Made by a program: the position numbers and the translations under genes. Below are positions 5,341 through 46,473 of a stretch of 64,000 nucleotides of DNA, piece by piece; position 1 is the stretch's first letter, and every line of letters starts with the position of its first letter. Origin of the DNA: an uncultured Rivularia sp. Lineage in GTDB: Bacteria; Cyanobacteriota; Cyanobacteriia; Cyanobacteriales; Nostocaceae. The notes below the pieces were generated by a model. That model was not told the origin of the DNA. It made no database searches and saw nothing but the letters and a program-made list of their open reading frames with translations. The DNA is taken from the NCBI GenBank assembly GCA_963665115.1, contig OY762007.1, forward strand, positions 2,240,001 to 2,304,000. Direction: 5' to 3'.

Positions 5341-5388
5341 GCTAAAACCTTCACAACAACAAGTTAAAAAAAAGACTTGCAAAAATTC

Positions 5389-24312: not shown

Positions 24313-24429
24313 AATAGTTTTATCCTTTATAAACTGGATAAATCAAAGGAGTATAGGATAAATATCATTTATCTTCAAATGTATTAGGTTTAATTGAAAA
24401 ATGTAACAAATTGTTTATCTGGGGAAAAT

Positions 24430-24909
24430 ATGTACGATTCAAAAATTAACGAAATAGAAAAAATGATTGATAAAATTGATAAATTGCAAGGTCAAGCTGA
24501 TAGTTTAAGATCGGAGGTATGTGATTTCAATGATTTTTGGGGATCTGCGGATAGGCTTGCAAATCAAATTAAAACTATTAATAGTGGCACAAAAAATATG
24601 GCACATTGTTTAAAAGAGTTAAAAAAAGAATTAGAAAATTTGTCACCTATATTTAATGATAAGGAATCACAACAAATTGCAAATAAATGGGTATATGTTG
24701 TAGCTAAACTAAAACGTTTAACAGAAACTGTAAATAATGCACAATATGAATTGGTTGATAGAAACTTTTGGGCTTGGGCTTCTTCTTTACTTGAAAATTT
24801 GGGAAATTTACTTAGACAAGTGATAGATGACGTAAAAGAAATAGCAGTGCGAGGAACAAAGAAATTAATCACTGAAGGCAAAATATTATTTCTTCCAGGA
24901 ATAGATTAA
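24430..24909 (+). CDS. Hypothetical coiled-coil protein
   Basis: ATG at 24430 within the ORF; helical heptad pattern. Confidence 0.6.
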   Translation: MYDSKINEIEKMIDKIDKLQGQADSLRSEVCDFNDFWGSADRLANQIKTINSGTKNMAHCLKELKKELENLSPIFNDKESQQIANKWVYVVAKLKRLTETVNNAQYELVDRNFWAWASSLLENLGNLLRQVIDDVKEIAVRGTKKLITEGKILFLPGID

Positions 24910-24957
24910 ACATCTAATTAGTAAAACTAAACATAATCCAAAAATAAGGCTGATGTT

Positions 24958-25401
24958 ATGAGCAAAAATATAGCTTTAGAAAAATTAATGACAAAATCTA
25001 CAAATAGCTTAAGAGTTTTAGAAGAAGAAATAGAATCATATGATGATATTGATTTAAGACATATACTTTTTTTATTAATTAATAAGTTAGTGTGTTCCGG
25101 TCAACACGATGAAGATAACACAAGAATAAAGCAAATATACAGAGAATTAGAGCGTATTCGTTCACAAATAAAAGCAGCTATCGATACTTATTCCAGAGAA
25201 CTTAAAAAAGATGATAACAATAATAAAGATACATTAGGATATATATCACAAATGATGCAAGTACTACGAAAGGTTTCAGTTATCGAAGAAAAATTAAATC
25301 GTAAAGACATTGAGAATATCATTAACAATCATAGTAGTAGTAAAAGTCGTCATCAAAAAGATAATGATATAAATTGGGATGACTTAGATTTAAATCTGTA
25401 G
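24958..25401 (+). CDS. Hypothetical helical protein
   Basis: 147-aa ORF in very AT-rich DNA; acidic tail INWDDLDLNL. Confidence 0.6.
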   Translation: MSKNIALEKLMTKSTNSLRVLEEEIESYDDIDLRHILFLLINKLVCSGQHDEDNTRIKQIYRELERIRSQIKAAIDTYSRELKKDDNNNKDTLGYISQMMQVLRKVSVIEEKLNRKDIENIINNHSSSKSRHQKDNDINWDDLDLNL

Positions 25402-25467
25402 TTTATTCTTATAACAATCAAAAATATGTAAAATTATCTCTTAATTGTTATTCCAAAAAATCCAAAA

Positions 25468-26667
25468 ATGCCTTCCAACGAAAACAACAACACCACCTTA
25501 TCCATCGCAGCATTAGCCGCAGCAGCAACCGGGATTTGGTCAATTTTCAACAACTCAAATAAATCAAACAACAACTATAAGCAGACAGAAGTGGATGCTT
25601 TATTTAACCAAGCGCTTGCCTTAATTCAACAAGGAAACTATCATCAAGCAACCCAGATATTCCTTCAAATTTTAGAAACAAATCCTCAGCACGCACCAAC
25701 CTATAACTACCTAGCTTGGATTTATGCAATTCATAACTATGAACTCGAACAAGCACTTGCATTTGCAAATAATGCGGTTCAACTAGCAAGCAGTCACGTT
25801 GATAAAGCTTGTTTTATTGATACTCTTGCAGAAGTTTATGCCCGTAAACAACAATTAGATACAGCAATAGCATTATCTTTAGATTGCTTAAAAATATTTC
25901 AAGGTATTAATAAATATCCTAATAATCCAACAACTTATTTTCGTTTGGCTTGGTGCTATCAAATTAAACAGGATTTTAATCAAGCCTACTATTTTATCCA
26001 GCAAATTCTACAATTTAACAGTATAGGAGCAAACGAACACCTAACGATAGGGGATATTTGTTACGCAATCGCCTTTTGTACTAGCAGTCAGGGAATGTAT
26101 CACGATTCCTTATCCCATTTTGATAACGCTATCCAACATTATCAAATATCCCTCAACATTGCCCAAAGCCAAAACTTTAGTATTGACTTATTCAGATTAA
26201 AGCTAAGTTGTTGTCTGAATGATAAAGCAAGAATTTTTTTTGTTCTAGAAGATTACCAAAGTAGTCAGAATTTATATCTCCAATCACATAATGTTTATAA
26301 TTTAAATCCTTATCCTTTAGTTAATTTGGCTCTTTTAGCTGCACGAGCTAAAAATAAACAGCAAATGCTTTTTTGGGTAGGAAAAACAATGCCTTTGATT
26401 GTAGATATGCCTCCCTACGTGCAGAAAGAAAAGTTAGTATATATTCTACTTACAGATATAGATTTTGATGATTATAAAGAGGATATTTTAGGATTACTTT
26501 TCAACCACGGCAAAATCAACCAATACGAATATGCACAATTTATAAAAAAAGCAATTAAGTCAAATCAGCCAATTATGAATTTTTCACAACAGAACTTTTA
26601 TGCAGATGTTACTGGTGTGGCTGGTAATGTTGAGGGAAATTTCATGTATCAACCTCAATGTGCATAA
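25468..26667 (+). CDS. TPR protein with N-terminal hydrophobic segment and C-terminal GVAGNVEGNF motif
   Basis: TPR helices (LFNQALALIQQGNY, NYLAWIYA, IDTLAEVY); low-complexity N/Q/G/V tail. Confidence 0.8.
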   Translation: MPSNENNNTTLSIAALAAAATGIWSIFNNSNKSNNNYKQTEVDALFNQALALIQQGNYHQATQIFLQILETNPQHAPTYNYLAWIYAIHNYELEQALAFANNAVQLASSHVDKACFIDTLAEVYARKQQLDTAIALSLDCLKIFQGINKYPNNPTTYFRLAWCYQIKQDFNQAYYFIQQILQFNSIGANEHLTIGDICYAIAFCTSSQGMYHDSLSHFDNAIQHYQISLNIAQSQNFSIDLFRLKLSCCLNDKARIFFVLEDYQSSQNLYLQSHNVYNLNPYPLVNLALLAARAKNKQQMLFWVGKTMPLIVDMPPYVQKEKLVYILLTDIDFDDYKEDILGLLFNHGKINQYEYAQFIKKAIKSNQPIMNFSQQNFYADVTGVAGNVEGNFMYQPQCA

Positions 26668-26703
26668 ACAAAACTCATAAATTAATCATAAGGAGATAAT
26701 TTT

Positions 26704-27063
26704 ATGTCAGATAATTCTAAAGTTCAAATGAATATGCATCAAGCAACTATTTCAGGTGGTGTTGCTGGTAATGTTGAAGGTGATTTTAATGTTAATCAAC
26801 AGCAAAATTTATCCGAAGCAGCAGCAGAAATCCAACAATTACTCAATCAACTATCTCAAACCTACCCGACAAACACAACTTCTGAAAAAATGGAAGTAGC
26901 AACAACAGCTATCCAACGTATCGAGAATAATTCTAATCTTCGTCAACGGGTACTCAACGCTTTAAAAACAGGAGGAATTCAAGCGTTAGGCCAAATGCTG
27001 AATCACCCGGCATCAACTTTTGTAATTGCAGCTTTGGATGATTGGCAGAAAAGCCAAAATTGA
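26704..27063 (+). CDS. Small protein: N-terminal GVAGNVEGDF motif plus helical 'NLSEAAAEIQQLLNQL' domain
   Basis: AAGGAG RBS at 26690-26695; the helical domain resembles a common C-terminal module of cyanobacterial repeat proteins. Confidence 0.8.
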   Translation: MSDNSKVQMNMHQATISGGVAGNVEGDFNVNQQQNLSEAAAEIQQLLNQLSQTYPTNTTSEKMEVATTAIQRIENNSNLRQRVLNALKTGGIQALGQMLNHPASTFVIAALDDWQKSQN

Positions 27064-27951: not shown

Positions 27952-29571
27952 CTATCTACTAATCAAACAAGCTTCTTCTAATTCAACTAATAAATCTTTT
28001 TCAATTGGTTTAGTAGAAAAGATATCGTGTTTTAAATCTCCCCATTTTTTACCAGAACTAGTTTTGTGTAAACTAATAATTTCAGGGATTTGTGAAGACA
28101 CCATGACTCGCACGGATTGCAGTTGTTCTAATAGTCTTGCTTTACGATAGTGGTGCGATTTTTGTAATCCCTCTTCTAACTGTGATGCGATTTCTTGGGG
28201 ATTATGTTTCGCGTTATCAAGTAATAATAGATAATGCTCTTGGGGATGTTTTACGGGTACTAAAGTTTTAAAACAGCTTTCTTCTAAGGGTAAACTTTTT
28301 AAGACATCGCGAACAAAATCTGAATGTAATTTTTCACCAACTAAATCACTTACTTCTTTTTGTCTTCCGATAAATTCCAAACAAGGTGTATTTAGGTATG
28401 AATGGGTAAAACGTACTCTATCTCCGATACGATAGCGATAGAATCCACCTTTTTGAGAAATAATCATTTCATAGGTGTTTCCCTGTTTTAATTGGTGTAG
28501 CTGAAAAACAAACCCGCTTTCATCTATAAATTCAAAAAACACTTCATTTAGTACGGGTACGCATCCTTTTGCAGGAATTAAAGGAATAGTCATTGGTGCT
28601 TCTGTAGCGAGAAGTCCTTTTCCTTGTACCAAAACATTAGGAAATAAAGAACGTAAAAAATCAGCACCATCAGCAGCATTGGCGCTATCCCAACAAGATA
28701 TTAGTTTAAGTTCGCTCCATAACAAATGCCAAGGAATTTTATCGCAATAAATTTTCTGGAATAGCTGATTTAATTTAGGATTTGTAGAGATTTGTTTGAA
28801 TAAATGAGGTTGCAACAGCATTAAACGACGTTTTGCTGACATCTTTTCTTTCAATTCTAAAGCTAATTGTTTGCGATTATTTTGAATATAATCAAGGATA
28901 ACTTTGAGAAAAGTTGGACTCCAGATCGATATTATTTCTAATTTTTCTGATTTTAAAAGCGTTTTAGCCAATTCATGTTTAAATTTTTCTGCATCGCGCA
29001 ATTTGTTTAATCCAGGCGGAGAAACTAGAAAATTATTCATCAAAAACTTCAACCAACCATCTAAATATTCTGAATCATCTTGTAAGGATTGAAAGTTGGA
29101 ATTATTTTTGAATTGTTCTTGCTGATTTTCTCCTAATTGCGGGGAAATACAAAAATATATTTTTCCAGTGTTAAATTTGGGGCCGTGTTTAATCAGATCG
29201 TACGCCCATATACAGAACATTTCATTGAAAGAGCGCCGCAAAGATTTAGTATAGGGAATTAATTTGGCTGAGCCACGACTTCCAGAAGTTTTTTCGTAAA
29301 AGCTAACTTTTTCCGCTGTAAGTAGCTGAGTTTTATCTTGCTGCTGTATATGAATCCAATTCTCAATATTATGGTATTCGATTATAGGAATGCGATGCCA
29401 ATCATCAATCGTTTTTACACGCAAATATCTTCCATAGTCGCTTTTAATCAAGCTTTTTAATATTTGATTCTGGACTTTTTCCTGTGCAGCTTGGGGATTT
29501 TCTAAAGCCCGATAAAAATTATGGCTTGTGGATTCGATTAGTTTACTAAAAAGTTTGATGAGTAAGTTCAT
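27952..29571 (-). CDS. GH3-family acyl acid-amido synthetase (adenylating ligase)
   Basis: TSGSRGSAKLIP, GLLATEAP, YRYRIGD and GEKL motifs. Confidence 0.85.
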   Translation of the reverse strand: MNLLIKLFSKLIESTSHNFYRALENPQAAQEKVQNQILKSLIKSDYGRYLRVKTIDDWHRIPIIEYHNIENWIHIQQQDKTQLLTAEKVSFYEKTSGSRGSAKLIPYTKSLRRSFNEMFCIWAYDLIKHGPKFNTGKIYFCISPQLGENQQEQFKNNSNFQSLQDDSEYLDGWLKFLMNNFLVSPPGLNKLRDAEKFKHELAKTLLKSEKLEIISIWSPTFLKVILDYIQNNRKQLALELKEKMSAKRRLMLLQPHLFKQISTNPKLNQLFQKIYCDKIPWHLLWSELKLISCWDSANAADGADFLRSLFPNVLVQGKGLLATEAPMTIPLIPAKGCVPVLNEVFFEFIDESGFVFQLHQLKQGNTYEMIISQKGGFYRYRIGDRVRFTHSYLNTPCLEFIGRQKEVSDLVGEKLHSDFVRDVLKSLPLEESCFKTLVPVKHPQEHYLLLLDNAKHNPQEIASQLEEGLQKSHHYRKARLLEQLQSVRVMVSSQIPEIISLHKTSSGKKWGDLKHDIFSTKPIEKDLLVELEEACLISR

Positions 29572-29658
29572 AGTAGGATAACGAGATTAAAATCTGTATT
29601 TATAAATGGATGAAAAAAACTACTTCCCGCAATATTCTAAGCTAAAGCCTGTATTCAA

Positions 29659-30318
29659 TTACGATAAAATTAGCGGATTTACTAATTGATTATTATCCTG
29701 CTGACAATCTTTTTCGATCACCGTATTTGGATACAAACAGCTATTTGCAGGAATAAAAGTTTGGTCTTTCACAATTACACCGGGAGTAAGTTTAGAACCC
29801 GCTCCGATAAAAACATCGCTACCAATTTTTACTTTTTTTACATACAGCATCAAATCTTGTTTTTTCGGTTTAACAACGTGGGGAAAAATACCGCAGCTTT
29901 GCCCAAAAAGTACGCGATCGCCAATTTCAATTAAGGAACGATCGCCAATTTCTAGTGTGGGAGTCCAGTATACATTTTTACCAACTTTTGCTCCCCACAA
30001 TCGCAACCACAGCGAAAATGCACCAGGAATCAGACGCAATGCCGATTCTAGAAAGCTAAAAGTGACATATATTAACTGTATTTGGTGACTTCCCCACCAA
30101 GGAGAATATTCTTTCCCCCCTAGATAACTAATTCCTTCTTCAATCTGGTAAAAATAGTCATGTATTTTATGGATTAATAATGGCAATCCATAGAAGGAAA
30201 ACAATAAACTGGCAACGCTTAAAATTCCAGGTGAATAACAAACCCATAAGAAAGAGGTAAATCCTAGAAGCATCACAGCAGCAGGAAAAAAGGAAAGTAT
30301 AGTGCTTGTTATAGTCAT
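29659..30318 (-). CDS. Membrane-anchored left-handed beta-helix acyltransferase
   Basis: Two N-terminal TM segments; LWGAKVGKNV, IEIGDRV and KIGSDVFIGAGS hexapeptide repeats. Confidence 0.8.
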   Translation of the reverse strand: MTITSTILSFFPAAVMLLGFTSFLWVCYSPGILSVASLLFSFYGLPLLIHKIHDYFYQIEEGISYLGGKEYSPWWGSHQIQLIYVTFSFLESALRLIPGAFSLWLRLWGAKVGKNVYWTPTLEIGDRSLIEIGDRVLFGQSCGIFPHVVKPKKQDLMLYVKKVKIGSDVFIGAGSKLTPGVIVKDQTFIPANSCLYPNTVIEKDCQQDNNQLVNPLILS

Positions 30319-30654
30319 GGGTTTAAATATATCGATCGTGAAATTGTGTATGCTGACATCATTTTGTTCCTAATTTGGATTTCAAGTAAATTTTGAGCTT
30401 TAACATCCGCAACATTTGAAAGGCGATGTAGTTTAGTAATTTCCACGATATCCAGTTTATTAAGCACTAGTACCAATTGCTTTTAAAACACGTATAAATC
30501 CGGATGTAAGTATCTCAATCTACAATCTCTTTAAATTTTATGCCTGTAATATGAAGTAAAAAGAGTACAACTAGCAGTAGTTGAGATGATGTGTTATTAC
30601 GCAAGTATTTGGATATTCATCGCAATTTTATATTCTCTATACTATCTATACTAC

Positions 30655-31380
30655 TCAAAATGGCAAGAATAATTTTTTCGTCAAAGATAGATAATTATTA
30701 ATACCTAATGAATCTGGAAGATTATCGGATTGATAGTAAGTTCCATGTATTTTATCCCAAAGCTTCAAATTTGCACCGTAGTTTCCCCGATCGCAATTGC
30801 TGGAATGATGCCAAGCATGATCTTGAGGTAAAATTAACCACGGTGATAAACAATAATATAACCATGAATTTACTTTTGGCGTAAAGTTACTGTGTCGCCA
30901 TAAATCCAAAGCCGAACTTAAACTGATGCCTAAAATATACCAGTAAGGTTCTTGCAGCAAATACAGGAATAAAGAGTGAATCCATAGATAAACAATAAAG
31001 AAGCTTGTCCATAAAGTATTACGGGAAGTTCCTAACACGTCCATTTCTGTGACAGTGTGATGCACTTGATGCATAAACCATAGTTTTCGAGTGTGAAATA
31101 GACGATGATTCCAGTAATAGAGATAATCTACAAATACAAAACTTAGCGAGAAAGCAGCGATAGGATAAAGATTTATTGAAGCACGAGTATGTGGTAGCAG
31201 CAACTGGTAAAGTTGAAAAACTACAGTAATTTGTAAAAATGGGATTGCAATTCCCTGAAAAAATAAGCCAATACCGTCTAATAACCAATCCTCACGACTC
31301 TTTTTTCGCCATAGAAAGGGTTGTTTGCTATTTGTAACGGTTAATGCTAGAAGAATTACGAAGGTAAAGAAAACTAACAT
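30655..31380 (-). CDS. Sterol desaturase / fatty acid hydroxylase family diiron enzyme
   Basis: His boxes HRLFH, HQVHH and HAWHH; GNYG...WDKIHGT. Confidence 0.9.
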   Translation of the reverse strand: MLVFFTFVILLALTVTNSKQPFLWRKKSREDWLLDGIGLFFQGIAIPFLQITVVFQLYQLLLPHTRASINLYPIAAFSLSFVFVDYLYYWNHRLFHTRKLWFMHQVHHTVTEMDVLGTSRNTLWTSFFIVYLWIHSLFLYLLQEPYWYILGISLSSALDLWRHSNFTPKVNSWLYYCLSPWLILPQDHAWHHSSNCDRGNYGANLKLWDKIHGTYYQSDNLPDSLGINNYLSLTKKLFLPF

Positions 31381-31503
31381 ATTGATAAATCAGTTGTAAT
31401 TTATACGATTTCAGGATTATATAATCGCTATACTTTAACTCAGGTTCTACCTGGGAATTTTTTGGAAGTGGCTGAGCCACTTCTTTTTTTGTTTGTACTT
31501 TAC

Positions 31504-32523
31504 TTAAACCCAAAATTTTACCTCTACCGATTTATCCGGAAGTTGCCTTGGATCTTTTCCTGCTAAAATGCGATCGCGAATTGACTCGACAAAAATATGG
31601 ATGGTGTCAGCAGGGGTATTAGCAAATTGGGTTCCATACTTTTCGATTACTTGCCACTGAATCTTTAAAGCTTGAATATCTTGCTGGATAATATGCTGTG
31701 TAGTCCAATGTACGAGGGGCTTTGCCAGTTTAGTCCATATGCCATAGTTATAGGTTACATAGGTATAAACCAAAGTGGAATCTTCTGTTTCTGGAATGCA
31801 TTGGCTGGTGATGAAAAGTCTTCTGTTAGGGGATATATCGTATTCAACGCTGGTAACATTCGGCATATGAAAGCTATCGATATGGCGAATTTTATGATTT
31901 TTACGATTGAGAAATTTTGCAAACCAGCCTATATTATTGGTTTCGTTACGGTATTCTGCAAACACGCTACCGTTGCGTCTTTCTACAGTCATTTCTAGCT
32001 GTTGTTTGCTGGGTTTGCGAAAAATCCCAGGATGCACTGAAGCGGTATGAGGAACATCAATAAAATTTTCTGCACAGTTAGTGACGTTATTACGAAAGCG
32101 ATTGATAACTTTTACAGTTTCCCATCCCGGCTGTTGGTACTCAGGCATTTTGAAAGGTGCAAATTCCTCCAAAGGTGACGATAAGCGCACGTAAACGAAA
32201 CCATCTTCTTCTTTAGTTTGATAAAGTTGGTTTTTTCGCATTTTGCTTGAACAAAAATTCTCTCCTTCCGAAGGTACGGTAACAACCTTGCCGGTATCAT
32301 CGTAAACCCAACCGTGGTAAGGACATTCGAGCTTGCCCTGACAAACTTTACCTTTTGATAAACGGGTATTTCTGTGAATGCACCTATCTTGTAAAGCAAC
32401 AGGTTTACCATCTTCCCCACGGAAAACTGCCAGCCATTCACCTAAAATTGTTCGTGAAAGGACTTGATTTGGTTTTAATTGGTTGCTCAAAGCGACAACA
32501 TACCAAAAATCTTCAAGTTTCAT
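31504..32523 (-). CDS. Rieske non-heme iron oxygenase
   Basis: CIH...CPYH Rieske ligands; ENFIDVPHTASVH mononuclear Fe site. Confidence 0.92.
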   Translation of the reverse strand: MKLEDFWYVVALSNQLKPNQVLSRTILGEWLAVFRGEDGKPVALQDRCIHRNTRLSKGKVCQGKLECPYHGWVYDDTGKVVTVPSEGENFCSSKMRKNQLYQTKEEDGFVYVRLSSPLEEFAPFKMPEYQQPGWETVKVINRFRNNVTNCAENFIDVPHTASVHPGIFRKPSKQQLEMTVERRNGSVFAEYRNETNNIGWFAKFLNRKNHKIRHIDSFHMPNVTSVEYDISPNRRLFITSQCIPETEDSTLVYTYVTYNYGIWTKLAKPLVHWTTQHIIQQDIQALKIQWQVIEKYGTQFANTPADTIHIFVESIRDRILAGKDPRQLPDKSVEVKFWV

Positions 32524-32609
32524 AATGTTGTTAGTGGATAGTTGTTAGTTGATTGAAATACCTGGCGAATGTAATTCACTGCTACACAGGCAAAGTCCAC
32601 CTGCGTGGA

Positions 32610-32897
32610 CTATTTTATTGTTGTAATTTGAATATTATTAGTTAACTGAATTTGACAAGCTAATCTTGCCTTTGGATTTTCTGGATCTAGTACTTCTAAA
32701 AGTTCTATTTCCTCTTCCGATGCAGGTGGAATATCTCCTTCTACAGCTACAATACAAGTGCCACAAATTCCAGTACGACAACCGAAAAGTATCGGTGAGT
32801 TTTCTACAGTTAAATGTTCGGCAAGGTTTTGATTTATTTCTAATTCAATCGGTTGATAATTTGTTTCTGGAAATTGAATAATACATTTTTTAGTCAT
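32610..32897 (-). CDS. 2Fe-2S ferredoxin
   Basis: CRTGICGTC ... RLACQ. Confidence 0.92.
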   Translation of the reverse strand: MTKKCIIQFPETNYQPIELEINQNLAEHLTVENSPILFGCRTGICGTCIVAVEGDIPPASEEEIELLEVLDPENPKARLACQIQLTNNIQITTIK

Positions 32898-33027
32898 ATT
32901 TATAAGTTATTTACTATTAACTATTCCTAATACTCTTTAAGACGACTTATCTCTCTTAATTTCTTTCCTCTGCGTCTCTGCGTCTAGTAAGGTTTATTAT
33001 CTTATAATGCCTCTACAAATCAATAAT

Positions 33028-34062
33028 TTATTTTTTATTTGACCATATTGAAGGTTGAAGTCGATTTACATAGCTCATATATTTAACCAACGGCTCATCA
33101 ATAGTTAAAAGAGCATTTGGATTATAACGAATATTGTCATAAATCATTCCATCTTCACCACGTAAGAAATAGTAAGCTAGTTTCGTCATAAATAACAAAA
33201 ATCTACTTATCAACCAACCAATAATTCCTTTTCTTTTTTTAGTTATATAAATAGGCTGAATTCTAGTTTTTCTACCTTCTAAAGGTGTATAGGCATAAAT
33301 CATATGCAAAGAAGGTATAAATCGCACTTTTTTCATGATAGTTAGCAATCCTATACAGCCATCGGCGTATCTCATGGTGTATTCGTAATCATCGCCGAGT
33401 ATTCTTTTAGCAATTTTCTCTCTAGATGTAGTTTGTGGAAACTTACCACTAAGGGTAAAATCAATGATATTTCCAGATTTATTTTCCTCTAGCGATAAAT
33501 CCATTTTGATATTTAGTTTATGTACGGTTTGAAGATGTTGAGCATCAATTCCGTTCATCATACAAATATGATGATGACAATTGCGTTCAAATGCTTTGTC
33601 GTATGATGTAACAAGAGATTTATTTTTTAATTCACCAAACTCTGCAATCTCTGGTGCTTTTTCCTCTGGATAAACCCAAATAAAACCATATTTTTCGTCA
33701 GTAGCATAAGATTGCAACTTGGCTTTTTGAGGAATATTTGATTGACAGGGAATATCTTGACATTTACCTTCACCATCAAATGCCCAATGATGGAAGAAAC
33801 AGCGAATTAAATTACCATCGACTTTCCCAATTGCTAAATCGGTTCCTAAATGGGGACAGTAAGCATCTAATGCCCTAACTTCATTATCTTTACCGCGAAA
33901 AATCACTATTTTCTGTCCGCAAATAGTAAAAGATTTGGCTTTGCCTTGGGATATGTCTTTACTCAGACAAACTATATACCAACCTTTAGTAACAACGTCC
34001 CAATTATTAAATACTTCCATCTTTATTAATGGTTGGGTATTTTTGTTTTGTAATGAGTTCAT
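33028..34062 (-). CDS. Rieske non-heme iron oxygenase
   Basis: CPH...CFFH; NGIDAQHLQTVH. Confidence 0.92.
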   Translation of the reverse strand: MNSLQNKNTQPLIKMEVFNNWDVVTKGWYIVCLSKDISQGKAKSFTICGQKIVIFRGKDNEVRALDAYCPHLGTDLAIGKVDGNLIRCFFHHWAFDGEGKCQDIPCQSNIPQKAKLQSYATDEKYGFIWVYPEEKAPEIAEFGELKNKSLVTSYDKAFERNCHHHICMMNGIDAQHLQTVHKLNIKMDLSLEENKSGNIIDFTLSGKFPQTTSREKIAKRILGDDYEYTMRYADGCIGLLTIMKKVRFIPSLHMIYAYTPLEGRKTRIQPIYITKKRKGIIGWLISRFLLFMTKLAYYFLRGEDGMIYDNIRYNPNALLTIDEPLVKYMSYVNRLQPSIWSNKK

Positions 34063-34077
34063 GTAATTAATTGACTC

Positions 34078-34254
34078 TTATTGATTTTTAGCATCAAGAA
34101 TAAACAGAATTGATCCGATAGTAAATAATATTCCTCCGCAGACAGAAGAAATAGAATAAAAGGATATCTCTTTAAATAAATCGATAAAAGAATTGTTCGT
34201 AAATAGAAGAGAACCAATTAGAAACAAATAACTTCCTAATAACGTATAGCTCAT
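34078..34254 (-). CDS. Small two-TM protein (YrhK-like, 58 aa; not in ORF track)
   Basis: MSYTLLGSYLFLIGSLLF...GGILFTIGSILFILDAKNQ; repeated LFxIGS motif; starts 2 bp after the upstream stop. Confidence 0.7.
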   Translation of the reverse strand: MSYTLLGSYLFLIGSLLFTNNSFIDLFKEISFYSISSVCGGILFTIGSILFILDAKNQ

Positions 34255-34256
34255 AA

Positions 34257-35426
34257 TTAATCGTGTTGATTATTAATTACCCATTTTTTAAAAGCTTTTC
34301 TTTGCCGATTCAAATATCGAGAAGTAGAATTTTCAGCCATCAAAGACATTTCACGGTTGCTTTTCCATAGATAATCCAGAGATTGCAGATAAACTTTATA
34401 GGATTCCATCGCTTCATGATGAGTTTGAAAGCTGTTGTGTAACGCTTCCGTCTCTTCAGTAAAACAACGACGCATCATATCTTTCGCATCTGCATCGCTC
34501 ATCCCGAAAATGCGCGATCGCAATACTTTGTAAATCGCTGAATACAGTGCAGCATCGTACCAAAATATCCCGTTGACTGCCACAGAACAATGATAATGGT
34601 CTTTTTGACAGCCGCGTACTCCTAAGTTTGCAACCAGTTTCTCAAAGTCGGTAGGAGGTTTGATGCAGTTAATTACATCGTGGGAAATTATAGTTGAACT
34701 ATTAAAATGAAAGCTTTCATCCATAAAATGATAGTAGGAAATTTTTGCGGGGATGGGTGCATCTTCCGGATTAAGATGTTTTTGATAATAATTGCTGAGC
34801 TTATGTTGAACTAACTTACCGTTAAGAGTACGCACGCCCCTAACTGTAAAATACTGACAAGCAAGAAATGTATTATCTGCGGATATTAATCCAAAAGCTT
34901 GTAGCTGAAGTTTTTTCCATTGTTGCTTGAGCAAGTTGGTATCAGTAAACACCATAGTTTCTGTATAAGGGCCGCGCATTGGGTAGCTGAAAATACGTTC
35001 TTCAAACAGCTTTAATTCGACTTCTTTAGAGATGGTTTTGAAAGCATTAATATGGGCGCGTTCCTGTGAAGATTCCAAATCGAGCATATCGCAGATCGAA
35101 CGAAAATCCTCTTGAGCATACAATCCAGCAGCGCTAGTTTGGTTAAAAAAGATAGTCGCAATTTCAGCAGAAATGATTTGAGAATAGTAAGCTACCCAGT
35201 AAAGTTGATTGAGAATAATTCTTTGACTTGGACTTGATTCTAACCATAAAGGCGTACCAAAAAGTAACGAGAACTCTTCTGGATTCCAGTATTCATTTTT
35301 GCAATCATCATACTTAAAATCAGTCGCAGCTTGATCTAATAATTCCGTACAATCTTGCTGTTTATTACGTTTATAGTTAATTTGCAACTTACGGCAGACT
35401 TGTTGATTTTCTAAAAGCATTTTCAA
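34257..35426 (-). CDS. AurF/CylC-like dimetal-carboxylate enzyme (putative halogenase/oxygenase)
   Basis: YYSQIISAE, ESSQERAH and HFMDESFH metal motifs; YWNPEEFSLLFGTPLW resembles cyanobacterial CylC-family proteins (recalled, not searched). Confidence 0.8.
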   Translation of the reverse strand: MKMLLENQQVCRKLQINYKRNKQQDCTELLDQAATDFKYDDCKNEYWNPEEFSLLFGTPLWLESSPSQRIILNQLYWVAYYSQIISAEIATIFFNQTSAAGLYAQEDFRSICDMLDLESSQERAHINAFKTISKEVELKLFEERIFSYPMRGPYTETMVFTDTNLLKQQWKKLQLQAFGLISADNTFLACQYFTVRGVRTLNGKLVQHKLSNYYQKHLNPEDAPIPAKISYYHFMDESFHFNSSTIISHDVINCIKPPTDFEKLVANLGVRGCQKDHYHCSVAVNGIFWYDAALYSAIYKVLRSRIFGMSDADAKDMMRRCFTEETEALHNSFQTHHEAMESYKVYLQSLDYLWKSNREMSLMAENSTSRYLNRQRKAFKKWVINNQHD

Positions 35427-35450
35427 TTATCAATTATCAGTTATCAATTA

Positions 35451-35626
35451 AGCTGATGTGCAGCTAAACTCTATAAAACGTTAGCGTTCACCGAAGGTGC
35501 GGCTCAGCGTGTCCGAAGGACATACAGCATATTTAGTTTTGGTGAAGTACATTCTGACGGGCAGGGATGCCCATCCCACAAGACTTTCGGAATATAGTTT
35601 TGTACCTCATTTAGCTGCAAAGGGCT
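35451..35626. mobile_element. MITE-like element with nested mini-hairpins
   Basis: TGCAGCTAAA(35459)...TTTAGCTGCA(35619); internal CACCGAAGGTG, TGTCCGAAGGACA and GGGCAGGGATGCCC hairpins. Confidence 0.6.
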
Positions 35627-35732
35627 GTAAATCTAAAATTATTGTAGTGCGGGCATCTTGCCCGCCAGAAAAATACAAATAAAATGCACGACACCCTACT
35701 TACAAATTTGAGAATATTTTTCTACTCTCTTT

Positions 35733-36638
35733 CTAAAAAACACATTGACTGGGTTTTAAAGCTTGAAAACTTCCCTTAATATCCAGATTTTCAAGTATAT
35801 TTTTAGCATTGGGTAAATCAATCAAATTGCGTAACAATTTCAAGCGACTTCCACTATGATTTTCAGTATCAAGTTGTGCAAAAATATTAATTTTATCTTC
35901 TTTTGATAAATGTCCTTTGACTTGTTCAATTGCTTTAACAACACTTTGAGGCCCCAGTTGCACCATTTGTAAAAACATTGCTAATATTTCCACAATATAT
36001 TGACTAGATTTACTTAGCGATATATTCTCAAACAGCGTTACTCCGGTAGCGTGATGTCGGCTTTCATCTTGCAAAAAACCTTGCAATATCGATTTTAATT
36101 GAGGATTTTGACAATATGAAGCAATACTGCGGTAATGAGTTAAACCCCACCCTTCTAAAACGACTTGCAGCACAAATAATAAAACTGTTTTATCATCGCT
36201 TTCTACCACCTTTTCCAGCAAATCTAAAAATGGGTTGTTGCTTACTTCCGGAGTCGGTAAAAAACTACTAATTTGTGCAAAATGGGTTACTTCATCCGCA
36301 GCAAATAAACCATAAAGCATTCTTTCCTCAGTGGTTTCTGCTAGCAAAATCATTTTCGCCATATAGCCCATGCCAGCTTTTTCGATAAAATAAGCTTCCT
36401 CCAAAATTCCTAAATTGCAAAGTTGTAAAATAGAACTTTGTTCCCCAGGTGTGGAATCTTTAAAAATTTTGACTTTATCGAGATTAAAATAATTAGCATT
36501 CCAGTAATTAACTAAAGTAGATCTATTTTCATAATATCTATTTGTTTTTTCAAGTGCTGAAGATAGAATTCGATTTAATTTATCTTTTGAATTAATATCA
36601 GGTAAATCTAATCCAGCAATAGTATATTGTCGATCCAT
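35733..36638 (-). CDS. Ferritin-like diiron-carboxylate protein
   Basis: EAYFIE, DEVTH, LEGWG and DESRH paired E...DExxH motifs. Confidence 0.85.
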   Translation of the reverse strand: MDRQYTIAGLDLPDINSKDKLNRILSSALEKTNRYYENRSTLVNYWNANYFNLDKVKIFKDSTPGEQSSILQLCNLGILEEAYFIEKAGMGYMAKMILLAETTEERMLYGLFAADEVTHFAQISSFLPTPEVSNNPFLDLLEKVVESDDKTVLLFVLQVVLEGWGLTHYRSIASYCQNPQLKSILQGFLQDESRHHATGVTLFENISLSKSSQYIVEILAMFLQMVQLGPQSVVKAIEQVKGHLSKEDKINIFAQLDTENHSGSRLKLLRNLIDLPNAKNILENLDIKGSFQALKPSQCVF

Positions 36639-36695
36639 GATTTTATATTTTAAGCTACTAACTAAGAGTTGAATATCTGAAAATTTATTAAAAGG

Positions 36696-36754
36696 GTTTG
36701 TAGTAGCGCTTCAGCGCCTCCGGATTCATGAGGCGCTGAAGCGCTACTACGAAC
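36696..36754. repeat. REP-like inverted repeat with a perfect 21-bp stem
   Basis: GTAGTAGCGCTTCAGCGCCTC(36700-36720) / GAGGCGCTGAAGCGCTACTAC(36730-36750). Confidence 0.9.
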
Positions 36755-36895
36755 TTTAATTATTCATGACTTATAAAGTGGAGCTGGCAAAAGTTCAAGT
36801 TTATTTAAGCTTATTAAAAATGATAAAAACGTAAATTGAAACCTACTAATATAAACATTAAAGTAAATAAAATATTCTATTCTTAACTTTCCTTC

Positions 36896-37153
36896 TTACT
36901 CTTGCGATTTTAAACAGCTGGGAATAACCATAGGATGAGATTCTTTTTCAAAGCTACGATCTTTCGGTAAAACCATAGGATGAGAATTCTCTTCAGTTTT
37001 GTTATTCGCGAATTTTTTTCCCGGTATAAGCATCTCCGAGTCCTCATGAGGGCAGATTTCGGCTTTTTTCTGAGAATTTGCACCGCAAGCAGCAAAAATA
37101 ATTACTATCAGGGAGTTGAAAAGGATTGAACGAACTGTAAGGGCTTTTTTCAC
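36896..37153 (-). CDS. Small lipoprotein with repeated SHPMV(L/I)P motif
   Basis: GTG start at 37153 gives MKKALTVRSILFNSLIVIIFAA-C lipoprotein signal; motif present twice plus a degenerate DSEMLIP. Confidence 0.65.
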   Translation of the reverse strand: MKKALTVRSILFNSLIVIIFAACGANSQKKAEICPHEDSEMLIPGKKFANNKTEENSHPMVLPKDRSFEKESHPMVIPSCLKSQE

Positions 37154-37225
37154 GATCGAATATTTGATTAATATATTTCTTGTAATTATTGTTGTTTGGT
37201 TAACCTTCAATCTAGTTGTTTCAAT

Positions 37226-37303
37226 TTTTGTAACGCTTTAGTACTCCACCACATTAAATCTCCAAATTCCGTAAAGTGAGGCGCTAAAGCGCTACTACAA
37301 ACC
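37226..37303. repeat. REP-like element (intact right arm, decayed left arm)
   Basis: GAGGCGCTAAAGCGCTACTACAAACC at 37278-37303. Confidence 0.7.
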
Positions 37304-37306
37304 TAA

Positions 37307-38401
37307 TTAATCATTCGCTTCTCCTTTTGATTCCACCATCTCTGCTTTTTTTTGTCTTTGTCTTTCTTGTTCCTCGTTTATGGGTTCCCAACTTTCCCAA
37401 CGTAAGGCTTTTTGTGTTTCTACATTTTGGATAAATTGCAAAATGGCATTATCTGCTTTAGTTGGTGTTTGAAAGTCGAAGTTGATTGTTTGAAATATCT
37501 GAGTATCTCCGGAAGCAAAGTAGTTACCCACCAACTTTGTCAGCAAAAGTACCGCTCTGTTGAACAACCAACCGAAAACACCCCGACGCTTTTTAGTTAT
37601 TAGAATGGTTTGTCCCTCTGCTTTCCCGCCTTCAAGCAAACGCAAAGCAAACATAATATGAAAATGTAGAAAATCGGGTCCTAAAGTTACTGTGCCAATA
37701 CTTCCATACCAATAACACATATTATAAGTAACGGCTTTTTTGTAAAAAGGGCGGATTAATTTCATCAGAAACGAATCTTCGCCACCCCTAGTAATGTTGT
37801 TAAAAATAATCGCATTATCATTGAGTTGCTGCTTGCGAAAAACAATCTCTAAGGGTAGATTGTGAACCGTATTAAAATGATGAGCATCGATAGCATTAAT
37901 CATCACCACGTTGGGATGACAGTTTTTCACAAACTCAGAAGTTACAAGACTATCACATTCATAATTTTCTAATTCTGGAACAAACGGTAAGGGTTGAGCA
38001 TGAGTTTCACCCACCCAAACCCATATCATGCCGTATTTTTCGGCAACGTGCCAGGTTTTCAACTGCAACGGAAGACTCGTTCCCAAACAAGGAACATCAA
38101 CGCAATTACCTTGACTATCAAACTTCCAATTATGAAATAAACAACGCAATCCCTTACCTTCAACTTTACCTTCGGCAAGGTGAGCGCCCATATGAGGACA
38201 CTTAGCGTCAAAGCAAACTAGTTCACCATCAATATTCCGGTAAATTGCTAACTCTTTACCCAGTAACGAAACCGCTTTGACTTGTCCTTTTCGCAACTTT
38301 TTGGCAGGAATAGCCCAATACCAACCTTCAATAAACCGCCTTGGATGGTTAAATATTTGCGTGTAACGATATGAACTAATAGTATTTGGTACGGCTTTCA
38401 T
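37307..38401 (-). CDS. Rieske non-heme iron oxygenase
   Basis: CPH...CLFH; NAIDAHHFNTVH; visibly paralogous to 33028-34062. Confidence 0.92.
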   Translation of the reverse strand: MKAVPNTISSYRYTQIFNHPRRFIEGWYWAIPAKKLRKGQVKAVSLLGKELAIYRNIDGELVCFDAKCPHMGAHLAEGKVEGKGLRCLFHNWKFDSQGNCVDVPCLGTSLPLQLKTWHVAEKYGMIWVWVGETHAQPLPFVPELENYECDSLVTSEFVKNCHPNVVMINAIDAHHFNTVHNLPLEIVFRKQQLNDNAIIFNNITRGGEDSFLMKLIRPFYKKAVTYNMCYWYGSIGTVTLGPDFLHFHIMFALRLLEGGKAEGQTILITKKRRGVFGWLFNRAVLLLTKLVGNYFASGDTQIFQTINFDFQTPTKADNAILQFIQNVETQKALRWESWEPINEEQERQRQKKAEMVESKGEAND

Positions 38402-38572
38402 GTCATTTTCATTACCGGAAGTTCCGGGTTTTAAATAAGTTGTATTTAAAAGCGTTATATCAAGGATGAGTAATTTTTAGTGTGTTGAAAGCATCACCTC
38501 GAAACTATTCAACGCCCTCTATTTCAACCCGACCGCATTTTTAGTTTTAAAGCGAACTTTGAAACAGGACTT

Positions 38573-39325
38573 TTAAACCGGAATTTTAAAGTCGGAATTT
38601 TTATCTTCGCTCTTACAATTTGTATTTGCAAACCACATTCTACGTCCGGCACGAGTCAAATTTTCCTCGCAAATCTCCGTAAAACAAACTAATTCATCAC
38701 CATTAAGATGCCCTGGGTTGAGCGTCTGGAAAAACTGAATATGCGGATCTCGCAATCTTTGAACGGGTATACCGTGCAAGCCATCTCGGAGTTTGTGGGG
38801 ATGGGGAAAACGAACCACACCAGTTTTAATATTATAATTTTCGCCAAAACGTTTGACAGATAAATCTTGCATCAAATTCAAAATACGTTCGGGGGTTACG
38901 GAGTCGTAGCAGGGATAAAACTCTTTCCAAAATAAGGGTAAAAAACGATAGGTGCGATAACCACCAGAAATTAATAGCCAGTAGAGTTTTCCTTTACAGT
39001 ATTCCCGGCGTAATTTATTTATCGAAGCTATCCAGCCCGTAGATAGAGCCGAACTTGACCAAGCGGTAGGATCTACAATAGTATCTCCAGAAAATACAAT
39101 GCTAATATTTTCACCTTCAAAATAGGTGTCGTACATTAGTAATGTAGAAAAACCTTTTAATTGATTTGTTTCTTCATCTTTAATTAAGATTACCCAATTT
39201 TTACTATCCAAATCGTTGTTGAATACGTCTCTCTTAACTCCTTCAAAGTGATTCGTTAAAAGCGCAAACATTTCTTCTACATCCAAAGCCGACAAATCGC
39301 TGGTGCTAATTAAATTACTATTCAT
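38573..39325 (-). CDS. Hypothetical GNAT-fold-like protein, first gene of the cluster
   Basis: LKGFST, FSGDTIVDP and LYWLLISGGYRTYR pattern suggests an acyl-CoA N-acyltransferase fold (inference). Confidence 0.55.
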   Translation of the reverse strand: MNSNLISTSDLSALDVEEMFALLTNHFEGVKRDVFNNDLDSKNWVILIKDEETNQLKGFSTLLMYDTYFEGENISIVFSGDTIVDPTAWSSSALSTGWIASINKLRREYCKGKLYWLLISGGYRTYRFLPLFWKEFYPCYDSVTPERILNLMQDLSVKRFGENYNIKTGVVRFPHPHKLRDGLHGIPVQRLRDPHIQFFQTLNPGHLNGDELVCFTEICEENLTRAGRRMWFANTNCKSEDKNSDFKIPV

Positions 39326-40559
39326 TTTTATCAATATTTTCTATTTACTTATTATCAACTATAGTTTTTTATTCTAGAAAGTTATTAAATGTATGTGTCA
39401 GATAGTTATCTGTCCAGGGTATTTTCACAGAAAAATATATCTATAAATAAATCCTAATAGATTGATATGCATAGCTTTGAGATTGTGAACTATCTCTTTT
39501 ACAAAAAATATCCCGCTCAATTAATAATATGAATTATTGTAAACTACTAAAAACTTCATCCCGCTTCATGTCGATTCAGCTATGTTCAATTAATATCTTA
39601 GTGATTGTTATATCTTCTAAGCAAAATGATAAATAATAGTAGACTATCTGACTAGAAATTGATGTTGAGAATATAAAAAAAATATCTAAATTTTAGTGGT
39701 TTGAGTATTCTTTAATAGTAATAATGGCAAAATATACTTTAGATAGGATATTTATTTCATTTGCTGTAGTGCAAGCATTTTGCTCGCGACTCCATATAAA
39801 TAAGGAGTTATTTATTTCCTCCCCATAAATATTAGTGTAAAAACCTTATGCTTCCGGTAATAGAAGCGCGATCGCCATGCTATTACTTTCAATATAGAAT
39901 AATTTATCTAGCAAGCCGGTGTTATCTTTATTTTCTTATTTTTTTATACTTCATTGTAGTTACCTACTCCGTATTTCGTTAAAAATATTGAGTCTTTATC
40001 AAAAAAACTAGCTCCCATGAAGTGAAAAGCTAATTTTTACAGACTCTACAGTCGAGCTAATCCCTGATATAGGGCATATTTACCAGATATATGTTCGATT
40101 CCATGTAAAATGCGCTACAATAATTCCAGCTTTGGCTGACGACATAATTTTAGTGCATCTACATTTAAAGTCAGGGTTGCATCTTCAAACTCAATTTTTT
40201 TTCTACGTAATGGCATCTTAAGATTACTGTTGCTACTTCTCTACAAGATAGCTGAGCAACTAATTTTACTGTTTTATAACAATTTGATTCTCTTTGAGAA
40301 AGATTTCAGCAAATTTCTCAGCAATAATTGTGATTTTGATATAAAAACCCTCAAAATGGGCAAACTAAACTGAAAAAATAATTAAATATTTTTGCACTTT
40401 TTGCTTGGATAGAATATCAAGTAATTTTGGATTTACGATTTTAAATTTTAAATTATCTCTGAAAGTATTGCCATAGCTGAAGTTACAGGCATATTTTTTG
40501 AATTATTTAAAGCTAAAAATCTAAAATCTGTTATGGCTGACATAAAAACTTGATTTTGG

Positions 40560-40662: not shown

Positions 40663-40742
40663 AATTTTGGGGTTAGCTCTATCTATCTAAATTAAAGCTG
40701 CTTTGTTTAATTATTCTAATCCAGGGAAAAATCTACATATTA

Positions 40743-42503
40743 TGTACGACTTAACTAAATTTACTCTTAGGGATATGTCAGAGTGCGGTTTAGCGCTACG
40801 ACAAATTGCAGAAAAATCTGATTGCATGGAAGATGCTAGTAATTTAATTATCAAATATTTTTACGAAAATTTTATTAATAAAGATACTGGAGAAAAATCT
40901 TGCATTCTTGTACGCTTTTTTAAAACTCATACCTACGAGAAACTAACTCCCGAATTACAAGAATTTGCACGGGATATATTAGCTCAAAACAAGGTTGCCG
41001 ATGATTTAAAATGTTTGACTTTACTATCTACTGCGGGTGAACTTCCAGAATGGAATTCTCGCTATAAATCAACAGCACACAAAGCAATACCACTTGCAAG
41101 TGAAGATTCTATACATCGCATACCAATGATTTCGCAATTGATTAGACAAATGGGTTTAAATCCTGGAACACTATTACAAACCGATGCCGATTTATTAATT
41201 GATAGCGAACAGAAGATGTATAACGTATTTTATGTTCCTAATGCTTTGGGTAGCTCTTATATTCCTTGCCAAACATCTTTCGTAATTCCGTTCGGAGTCA
41301 AATCTGTGATTGGATTTGGTGGATTATTGCCTACTGGCAATATGTTTACGATTTTGATGTTTTTGAGGATAGTAGTTTCCGCAAACAATTGTAGATTTAA
41401 TACGTCCTTTAGCCCTAAATGTTAAAACTGCGATTCTTCCTTTTGATGACGGCAGAATTTTCAAAGAACCTCATCAAGTATCTATTAACGAAGACAATAT
41501 TTTACAGCGCCTAAATTCTAAAGTTGGCACTTTAAATCAGTTACTAAATGTTTCCGAACAATCCACTATTACTCAGTCAGATCGTTTAGAGAAAGCAATT
41601 ATCAACCTTGAGCAAACTTTGAATCAGCTTCAGAAAACTCAAATTCAACTAGTACATAATGAAAAAATGTCTAGTTTAGGTCAGATGGTGGCAGGTGTTG
41701 CTCATGAAATTAATAATCCTGTAAGCTTTATTCATGGAAATCTTAACTACGTAGAGGAATACAGCCAAACTTTACTCAAATTAATCCACTTGTATCAACA
41801 GAAAGATGCCGACGATTTAGAACAAATTCAACAAGAACTTGATTTTGAAGAATTAGATTTTATCAAAGAAGACTTTATCCAAATTATTCGGTCGATGAAG
41901 GTAGGAACTGAACGTATTCAAGAAATTGTTAAATCTCTAAGAATTTTTTCTCGCTTAGACGAAGCAGAAATTAAACGGGTTGATATTCATTTAGGTATCG
42001 ATAGTACTTTGATGATTTTACAAAGTCGTTTAAAAGATCAATCCACTCATTCAAATATTGAAGTAATAAAAGAATATGGCAAATTACCAGAAATAGATTG
42101 CTATCCCGGTCAACTAAATCAAGTATTCATGAATATTATTGCTAATGCGATTGATGCTTTAGAAGAACAAATAGGTAATAGAGGATGGGCAACAGAAGAT
42201 AATAAAAAAGAATGGAACAAAGATATTTTTAAACCTTTTCAAATTCGTATTCGTACTAAAGTTTTAAATGAAAAATGGATATCTGTTAGTATTTCTGATA
42301 ATGGTTTGGGGATGACAGAAGAAGTTAGTTCTAAATTATTCGATCCATTTTTTACAACTAAAGAAGTCGGAAAAGGTACGGGATTGGGATTATCTATCAG
42401 TCATCAAATTGTAGTAGAAAAACATGGCGGACAACTCAAATGTAATTCTGTACTTGGAGAAGGTACGGAATTTGTAATAATGCTTCCGATTAATTCGCTT
42501 TAA
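40743..42503 (+). CDS. Cytoplasmic sensor histidine kinase, +1 frameshift near 41377
   Basis: H-box GVAHEINNP, N-box NIIANAIDA, DNGLG, FDPFFTTK and GTGLGL. Removing one T of AGTTTCC fuses the 240-aa ORF via ...PLALNVKTAILPF... to the kinase ORF. Confidence 0.85.
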
Positions 42504-45383: not shown

Positions 45384-46473
45384 ATGGAAATCGGTGTTCC
45401 CAAGGAAACAAAAGATAGAGAGTTTCGAGTAGGGTTAAGTCCTTCCAGTGTCAGGGTTTTAAAGGAAGCAGGCCATAATATTTTTGTAGAAACCAAAGCC
45501 GGTACTGGTGCTGGATTTACAGATGACAATTACGTAAGTGCGGGCGCACAAATTGTTACCACACCTGAAACTGCTTGGAATCGTGAATTAATTGTAAAAG
45601 TCAAAGAAACCGCTACAGGCAGAATATAAATTTTTGCAAAAAGGGCAATTACTATTTACTTATTTACATTTAGCAGCAGATAGAAAATTAACTGAACATT
45701 TAATTGATTGTGGTGTAACGGCGATCGCCTACGAAACAGTAGAGCAACCTGGTGCGAATAAGTTACCTTTGCTTACTCCGATGAGTATAATTGCCGGTCG
45801 TCTTTCGGTACAGTTTGGTGCTAGATACCTTGAAAGTCAGCAAGGTGGAAGAGGGGTACTTTTAGGTGGAGTACCAGGAGTTAAACCGGGTAAAGTCGTA
45901 ATTTTAGGTGGTGGTGTAGTTGGTACCGAAGCTGCAAAAATTGCCGTCGGCATGGGTGCTACAGTACAAATTTTAGATATTAACGTCGAACGCTTATCTT
46001 ATTTAGAAACATTATTCGGTTCCAGAGTTGAACTGCTTTATAGTAATTCTGCCTATATTGAAGAAGTAGTTCCTCAAGCGGATTTACTTATAGGTGCAGT
46101 TTTAGTCTTAGGAAGACGAGCGCCTACCTTAGTATCTCGCGAATTGATCAAAAAGATGAAGCCCGGTGCAGTAATTGTAGATGTTGCCGTCGATCAAGGT
46201 GGATGTATTGAGACTTTACACCCTACATCTCATACAAATCCAGTTTATGAAGAAGAAGGAGTAATACATTACGGCGTACCTAATATGCCAGGTGCCGTAC
46301 CAAGGAGTGCAACTCAGGCACTAAACAATAGTACTTTACCCTATGTACGACAGTTAGCGAATGAGGGAATAAAAGCTTTGGTTAATAATCCAGCATTAGC
46401 GAAAGGATTAAATGTAGATCATCATAAAATCGTGCATCCAGCCGTAAAAGAAGTATTTCCAGATTTGGTTTAA
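45384..46473 (+). CDS. ald: Alanine dehydrogenase, +1 frameshift near 45608
   Basis: MEIGVPKE, KVKEP, FTYLHLA, ILGGGVVG, DVAVDQGG and VPNMPG motifs. Removing one A of GAAACC restores KEPLQAEY. Confidence 0.93.

Follow-up and report, generated by a model that had tools for sequence, protein, structure and literature searches.

A 64,000-nucleotide stretch of an uncultured Rivularia sp. (assembly GCA_963665115.1, contig OY762007.1, positions 2,240,001 to 2,304,000 of the forward strand; hereafter the window) was analysed for a cluster of twelve minus-strand open reading frames (ORFs) that run in one direction at 27952-39334 with intergenic gaps of 2-336 nt. The cluster holds a GH3-family ligase, a CylC-related diiron enzyme, three Rieske oxygenases and further oxidative enzymes (Table 1), and ten of its genes are inherited together and likely form one pathway. 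Tentatively, and with slightly less than even confidence, this pathway is read as carrier-free: a free fatty acid would be joined to an amine and then oxidised, giving an N-acyl amide lipid, likely without chlorine. What is observed is the gene set itself, with ligands intact and members strictly co-occurring; the enzyme steps and the product are predicted from it. This copy is an intact new member of a known orphan class of clusters, with no new architecture.

Conservation of the gene set and published relatives

Co-occurrence was scored in an even sample of the phylum (301 genomes), with membership of the clade set at a match to the CylC-like protein of E < 1e-147. The protein was matched in 37 genomes, 27 of them in its clade and ten of these outside the class of the window; this genome holds a single copy of the CylC homologue. 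The desaturase-family gene was found in precisely the 27 clade genomes and in no other of the 301, and a GH3 orthologue in 27/27. Using profiles built partly from the cluster genomes themselves, the GNAT gene was found in 36 genomes (all 27 of the clade and nine others, each with GH3) and the ferritin-like gene in 27/27 plus three cluster-free solo copies (L249:9550-10512, L250:9528-10487 and L251:9526-10452). Rieske B has an orthologue in 26/27 and is interrupted by an insertion sequence (IS) in one. In genus g27, the gene set is dispersed over five places yet kept. The ten core genes are inherited together and likely form one pathway, because the GH3, GNAT, ferritin-like and desaturase-family genes accompany the CylC-like clade in 27/27 genomes, even when scattered. 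Pairwise identities of the CylC-like protein track those of its partners (Spearman 0.88-0.93), related genomes not being independent in this correlation or in the co-occurrence counts.

Locus counts were made on the best 80 of 309 relatives of the CylC-like gene from a species-genome scan, mostly Nostocales, with many of the 80 loci ending at contig ends. The ferritin-like gene was present in 76, Rieske A and the ferredoxin in 74 each, GNAT in 72, Rieske C in 69, Rieske B in 66, the desaturase-family gene in 62, the hexapeptide gene in 56 and GH3 in 53. The lipoprotein (17/80) and YrhK (12/80) genes are lineage-specific extras outside the ten-gene core. From a metagenomic set, 80 loci were fetched, and the 38 of at least 12 kb held GH3 in 27, GNAT in 27, the desaturase in 29 and Rieske C in 32. 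The cluster also occurs in non-photosynthetic lineages, and one carrier is named Bdellovibrionia. Synteny across the 80 loci and co-occurrence in the 301 genomes thus bear out the first-pass annotation of this DNA, made without database searches, which had proposed these genes as a unit.

Ligand residues were counted in full-length homologues (at least 33% only), among which some genomes may appear twice. The predicted metal ligands of all six iron oxygenase-type genes, earlier described as intact, are near-invariant in 77-105 homologues per gene. Residues C68/H70/C87/H90 and D172/H175/H180/D299 of Rieske A are invariant in 94/94, and the ligands of Rieske B in 77/77; for Rieske C, the Rieske and iron His/Asp ligands are kept in 88/88 and D156 in 87/88. 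The ferritin-like enzyme keeps E86, E116, H119, E162, E192 and H195 (93/93), the desaturase-family enzyme its His boxes (79-80/80), the ferredoxin its four Cys (90/90) and the hexapeptide acyltransferase H147 (76/76).

The cluster type is already in print, so that the novelty claimed for it at first does not hold. Eusebio et al. 2021 (PMC8406957) described 'Rieske-containing' and 'PriA-containing' clusters with one CylC homologue, two to four Rieske genes, a sterol desaturase family gene, acyltransferases, no carrier and a separate clade, in agreement with the first-pass annotation, which had mentioned such clusters in genome surveys. The 'Rieske-containing' class, with 36 clusters and no product, was the commonest there and is thus the largest CylC-homologue group of that survey. 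The present cluster does not differ from it in kind: it has a single CylC homologue in the Rieske/PriA clade, three Rieske genes, one PF04116 gene and no carrier or fatty acyl-AMP ligase (FAAL). The main text of the survey reports no substrate-activating proteins near these homologues and contains 0 occurrences of GH3, which its supplement may show; here GH3 accompanies the clade in all 27 genomes. An earlier listing, the fed6 'cluster f' of Cassier-Chauvat and Chauvat 2014 (PMC4284462), has the matching order hypothetical-Rieske-hypothetical-hypothetical-fed6-pobA-sterol desaturase-hypothetical. In the portion of that review concerned it is a gene neighbourhood only, and the present copy has in addition Rieske B, YrhK, the lipoprotein and a terminal GH3. 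As first stated, no product is assigned: neither a product nor a mutant phenotype, apart from those cited here, was found in the literature searched, most subscription journals lying outside the search, and the passages of PMC10088813 and PMC12971839 that bear on the cluster name none.

Table 1. Genes of the cluster, with positions in the window.
Feature	Position	Strand	Basis
GNAT-fold protein, partner of GH3 subfamily, core	38573..39325	-	predicted model pLDDT 90; start by alignment
Rieske non-heme iron oxygenase A, core	37307..38401	-	PF00355
Small lipoprotein, ~85 aa, two HPM repeats, lineage-specific passenger	36896..37153	-	FAACG lipobox-like site
Ferritin-like diiron enzyme, 2-His/4-Glu type, core	35733..36638	-	PF13668
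CylC-related diiron enzyme, Rieske/PriA clade, Gln207 variant, core	34257..35426	-	motifs and tree
YrhK-like 58-aa membrane peptide, lineage-specific	34078..34254	-	PF14145, 34 bits
Rieske oxygenase B, paralogue of A, near-core	33028..34062	-	PF00355
[2Fe-2S] ferredoxin, Fed6 type, likely electron donor, core	32610..32897	-	PF00111
Rieske oxygenase C, VanA/PobA-like, core	31504..32523	-	PF00355 and PF19112
Membrane His-box enzyme, sterol-desaturase/fatty-acid-hydroxylase family, core	30655..31380	-	PF04116
Membrane-anchored hexapeptide-repeat acyltransferase, core	29659..30318	-	PF00132; two hydrophobic helices
GH3-family acyl-adenylate amide ligase, core	27952..29571	-	GH3 N, M and C domains

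Predicted substrate activation by GH3, and its GNAT partner

Gene order and coordinates agree with those first given for the twelve genes, with two corrections: the GNAT gene probably starts at ATG 39325 and the lipoprotein gene at GTG 37153. Pfam matches above cut-off were obtained for the three Rieske proteins, Ferritin_2, Fer2, FA_hydroxylase, Hexapep, GH3 N/M/C and YrhK; the GNAT-like and lipoprotein ORFs had no Pfam match and the GNAT-like ORF no NCBIfam match. The lack of polyketide synthase (PKS), nonribosomal peptide synthetase (NRPS), FAAL and acyl carrier protein (ACP) genes was upheld, with no Pfam match among the 48 ORF translations of the window and no match to ACP or adenylation-loop motif patterns in its six frames. 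No ACP recurs in related loci, though a housekeeping ACP might serve.

GH3 could be the activating enzyme that the 2021 main text reported absent, because GH3 enzymes adenylate carboxylic acids. Residues T95-S96-G97, T323-E324 and R379-Y380-D384 are invariant in 78/78 homologues, nucleotide-binding motifs I-III correspond to those of OlsH and plant GH3s, S96 falls at the position of S115, a residue that OlsH cannot do without, and the PDB matches are plant GH3 enzymes exclusively. With its adenylation motifs intact and all three domains in place, the protein retains its first assignment as an amide ligase, as a predicted activity.

The working model for the scaffold is the OlsH/OlsI pathway with the OlsE hydroxylase, as set out in the relevant parts of PMC12493201 and PMC12971839: a GH3 enzyme, OlsH, makes an N-acyl amino acid (N-acyl-ornithine) from free fatty acid and ATP (PMC12493201), a second acyltransferase follows, and a His-box enzyme hydroxylates. 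The present proteins fall far under both the OlsH and OlsE cut-offs (desaturase-family enzyme to OlsE, 67 vs 475 bits). The cluster has no OlsI-type gene; GNAT and hexapeptide enzymes replace the alpha/beta-hydrolase OlsI, and there are five further oxygenases.

The GNAT label given at first was confirmed at the level of fold by the predicted model, which matched the acyl-amide-forming types LasI at Z 12.1 (root-mean-square deviation 3.4, 166 aligned) and FeeM at Z 11.1 (3.3, 158), tied with acetyltransferases. GH3 and GNAT are a reusable module, because the nine cluster-free genomes with GNAT all have GH3, often adjoining, amid other genes. Elsewhere the pair stands with B12 radical SAM genes, a fatty-acid desaturase, a hexapeptide acyltransferase or a large RnfD-like/FG-GAP/UnbV protein, in settings that recur at L157, L158, L159, L161, L162, L164 and L253 and that we label a putative family of further orphan amide-forming clusters. 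Outside the window, this genome has a second, distant GH3 (22-25%; L165:9400-13200) adjoining JmjC/cupin, Asp/Asn beta-hydroxylase and ABC exporter genes.

The CylC-related enzyme and the question of halogenation

The CylC-like protein keeps E88, Q121-E122-H125 and H233-D236-E237-H240 in 105/105 homologues and is 28-32% identical to carrier-linked homologues. In a midpoint-rooted tree of 37 rows it lies in a 26-row clade with 100/100 support, together with PriA-adjacent homologues. Nine FAAL/ACP-linked and two KAS III-linked homologues fall outside this clade, across a long branch. The phylogeny proposed at first, with CylC, BrtJ, ColD and AurF, was thereby obtained in part: the separation from carrier-linked homologues emerged from a tree that does not include these four or NocO.

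Nine active-site residues are defined for diiron halogenases by Wang et al. 2025 (PMC12101540), with a Gln subset at one Glu; in the sections concerned, CylC E283 is the counterpart of the second-sphere Glu NocO E252, and NocO E252A loses chlorination and retains iron. The present protein has Gln207 there (the correspondence follows from alignment and from a spacing of 30 residues that matches NocO E252-D282, NocO and CylC themselves not being aligned). Gln207 is found in 105/105 homologues and 76/76 metagenomic copies. A Glu stands 30 residues before the motif Asp in 11/11 carrier- or KAS III-linked homologues and in 20/20 distant full-length representatives. Because Gln207 stands where Glu is required for chlorination by NocO, halogenation by the Gln207 clade appears doubtful. 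The enzyme belongs to the fold family of CylC, NocO and BrtJ (PMC12101540) and agrees with them at eight of the nine active-site residues; it differs in its identity of about 30% to the FAAL/ACP- and KAS III-linked stand-ins, in Gln207, in having no ACP or FAAL and in its separate clade.

An unlikely alternative, and one to be taken seriously, is that the same amide-lipid scaffold is made and that the CylC-like enzyme chlorinates its free or amide-bound acyl chain, the chlorine being kept or used cryptically. The first Glu and both motifs, QExxH and HxxDExxH, do not vary among the homologues, the protein has the halogenase-type Gln121 where AurF has Asp, and the closest characterised relatives are CylC-type halogenases; set against this are Gln207, the long branch from every carrier-linked homologue and the fact that we know of no chlorinated lipid from Synechocystis PCC 6803. 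On the published side, the variable Glu/Gln residue is predicted not to bind metal, in favour of chlorination, whereas characterised CylC and NocO act on, and require, ACP-bound substrate (both PMC12101540). The halogenation first suggested is therefore weakened at one position, with the halogenase-type motifs otherwise kept. If the Gln clade is non-halogenating, about a third too many diiron halogenases have been counted in cyanobacteria, and comparing Gln with Glu at this site would show, in a natural experiment, on what halogenase activity of a diiron enzyme depends. Should the clade halogenate, its enzyme would be a carrier-free C-H halogenase and a useful biocatalyst. Either way, GH3 offers a direct biochemical entry to the putative lipid of this orphan class, whose genes are present in laboratory cyanobacteria.

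The other chemistry first suggested, AurF-type N-oxidation, is weakened as well. The likeness to the arylamine N-oxygenases AurF and CmlI consists of the ferritin-like diiron fold and a weak, sub-threshold PF11583 match (17.3 vs 29.6 bits); the protein has QExxH (Gln121) instead of Asp-ExxH and, with Gln207, no Glu at the E196-equivalent position and no 3-His/4-carboxylate site. It is improbable that the cluster makes a small metabolite other than a lipid, such as an aromatic acid amide hydroxylated by the Rieske enzymes and N-oxidised in an AurF-like step. That weak match and the database names 'AurF' would suit such a product, as would the VanA/PobA-type domains of Rieske C, the presence of CmlI and AurF among the tied folds of the ferritin-like enzyme and the ligation of benzoates by plant GH3.12. 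This reading is opposed by the missed AurF cut-off, by the lack of any PDB sequence match to the CylC-like family profile at E<=1, by two membrane-bound core enzymes, by accessory genes of mostly lipid type and by the lack of a conserved chorismate-derived precursor gene recurring in related loci.

Proposed pathway, expression and neighbouring genes

Accessory genes in the 80 metagenomic loci comprise amidohydrolase (17), Mpo1-like 2-hydroxy-fatty-acid dioxygenase (17), SnoaL-like (16), short-chain dehydrogenase/reductase (SDR; 14), PAP2_3 (9), methyltransferase (7) and GT2 (4) genes. The amidohydrolase and Mpo1 genes are fused in loci L113 and L127, and the amidohydrolase has a strong match in 10/27 cluster genomes versus 0/27 hand-picked others. 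Apparent fusions at L113 of a 741-aa CylC-like protein and others were rejected as merely open frames of GC-rich DNA. The accessory genes point to a lipid, and the carrier-independent acyl-amide or lipid route first proposed is backed by them, by the absent carrier and by the intact GH3 motifs.

In the favoured pathway, GH3 would use ATP to activate a fatty acid as its adenylate and then couple it to an amine or amino acid, in the manner of OlsH. Acyl groups would be attached or altered by two further proteins, the GNAT partner and the membrane hexapeptide acyltransferase. Hydroxylation or desaturation, of the chain or of the head group, would fall to the three Rieske enzymes, the two soluble diiron enzymes and the membrane His-box enzyme. 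The ferredoxin encoded in the cluster would supply electrons together with a housekeeping reductase, invoked because the cluster has no reductase gene. In some lineages, the amidohydrolase and Mpo1-like dioxygenase may together break the amide bond and shorten the acid that is set free.

The same accessory genes admit a catabolic role, given a slim chance, in which an outside lipid or amide is degraded or remodelled by hydrolysis, oxidation and alpha-oxidation and GH3 only activates the acid. The amidohydrolase, Mpo1-like and SDR genes, the presence in non-photosynthetic lineages and Rieske matches that include the catabolic KshA and demethylases fit such a role. Yet the core comprises the ligase and the acyltransferases but not the hydrolase and Mpo1, which are optional; related loci share no recurrent transporter or regulator gene; and the corresponding Synechocystis block is transcribed in mineral medium (PMC4195498). 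Tailoring of the cell's own hopanoids or sterols is hardly credible. The sterol-desaturase family gene, KshA among the PDB matches and SdmA sterol monooxygenase as best NCBIfam match of all three Rieske proteins (far under cut-off) would agree with it, but a squalene/oxidosqualene cyclase domain was detected in 12/27 cluster genomes, and none was detected in the present genome, which is 99.9% complete; with 15/27 lacking a detected cyclase, this one included, endogenous tailoring was rejected.

The gene order of one cluster genome (G167) matches Synechocystis sll0263-sll0266, ssl2559-sll1297, sll1510-sll1511 and sll0225, a mapping inferred from neighbours. As reported in the relevant portions of these sources, read counts for sll0264-sll0266, which make up a single transcription unit, are 2,654-7,638 across nine conditions and 336 in the dark (PMC4195498), sll0266 drops under iron deprivation (PMC3516471), and ssl2559-sll1297, the fed6-pobA piece, is phosphate-induced as the last part of a taxis operon to which PhoB binds, with sll0263-sll0266 not induced (PMC11126600). 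The genes are thus expressed in the model strain, though not as one phosphate regulon. The gene fed6 was called essential in Synechocystis by the 2014 ferredoxin review (PMC4284462) and was fully deleted in a 2022 study (PMC8887894). Upstream of the present cluster, a Pho-box consensus scores 18/24, the mode of 400 random windows; with this score and the uninduced sll0263-sll0266, a phosphate-starvation substitute lipid was rejected as a general explanation. In the only RNA run for this organism, 5% of words were present and fragments were mostly 90-95% alike, which does not establish transcription of the cluster.

Several points weigh against an unchlorinated N-acyl amide lipid. GH3 has Leu in place of Tyr in motif II and scores 25.6 bits against the OlsH family NF052613 (cut-off 620), and plant GH3s also accept aromatic acids. 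The GNAT model matches many GNATs at Z 10-13 with none prominent, and the ferritin-like model ties ADO, sMMO, R2, R2lox, CmlI and AurF at Z 14-15.5, naming no subfamily. All but one of the halogenase residues are kept in the CylC-like enzyme, and loss of activity from Glu to Ala in NocO does not prove a Glu-to-Gln change to be inactivating. Six is a large number of oxygenases for a membrane lipid, this genome has neither the amidohydrolase nor the Mpo1 gene, phosphate starvation does not affect the Synechocystis pieces in concert, and ornithine lipids have not been identified in cyanobacteria according to a 2026 review, in its part on these lipids (PMC12971839).

A bolder form of the proposal is rather unlikely: the commonest 'CylC halogenase' cluster class would be non-halogenating and make a multiply oxidised N-acyl amino-acid lipid of undescribed type, built by GH3 and removed by a dedicated amidohydrolase-Mpo1 pair, that would be a signal, as a bacterial parallel to the hormone conjugates of oxylipins with amino acids in plants, and common to cyanobacteria, non-photosynthetic relatives and Bdellovibrio-type predators.

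Cluster GC content (34-39%) is similar to that of the surrounding DNA. The lipoprotein keeps its FAACG site in relatives, its ORF is frameshifted in loci L001 and L002, and its gene is flanked by a dispersed repeat with 105 matches in the genome. No Rfam match was found, and promoter-like (62 vs 53.6 +/- 6.9) and terminator-like (12 vs 8.8 +/- 3.8) matches were at chance level.

In related loci, the G167 Rieske B orthologue (L271:3899-5881) is interrupted by about 0.95 kb of inserted DNA that contains two transposase-like ORFs and that we take to be an IS element; Rieske B is intact in the two other cluster-bearing genomes of genus g27. In the same genus, a 359-aa desaturase-like gene, presumably desD, shares the strand of the GNAT-Rieske-ferritin-CylC block and sits immediately upstream of it (L120:13400-14500). 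The ferredoxin-Rieske C gap in Nostoc loci is an insertion hot spot for deaminase-toxin and SMI1/KNR4 immunity-type genes or toxin-antitoxin pairs (L036:11530-11922, L068:12604-13068 and L140:8127-8998). A stand-alone Rieske A/B paralogue (30-40% to B) has a match in 33/37 genomes of the window's family and not in this genome; at L272:8398-9486, L273:8805-9908 and L274:8568-9740 it has no conserved operon, with a MerR regulator and metal ATPase adjoining in 2/3.

Just downstream of the cluster, window positions 24394-27063 hold four plus-strand ORFs of low GC (29-33%), one with TPR and three with no Pfam match. Three window genes are split into two ORFs, a sensor histidine kinase (40703-42503; a single 545-aa ORF in relative L005), a DEAD-box helicase (16487-19157) and an alanine dehydrogenase (45384-46473), and are either assembly frameshifts or recent pseudogenes.

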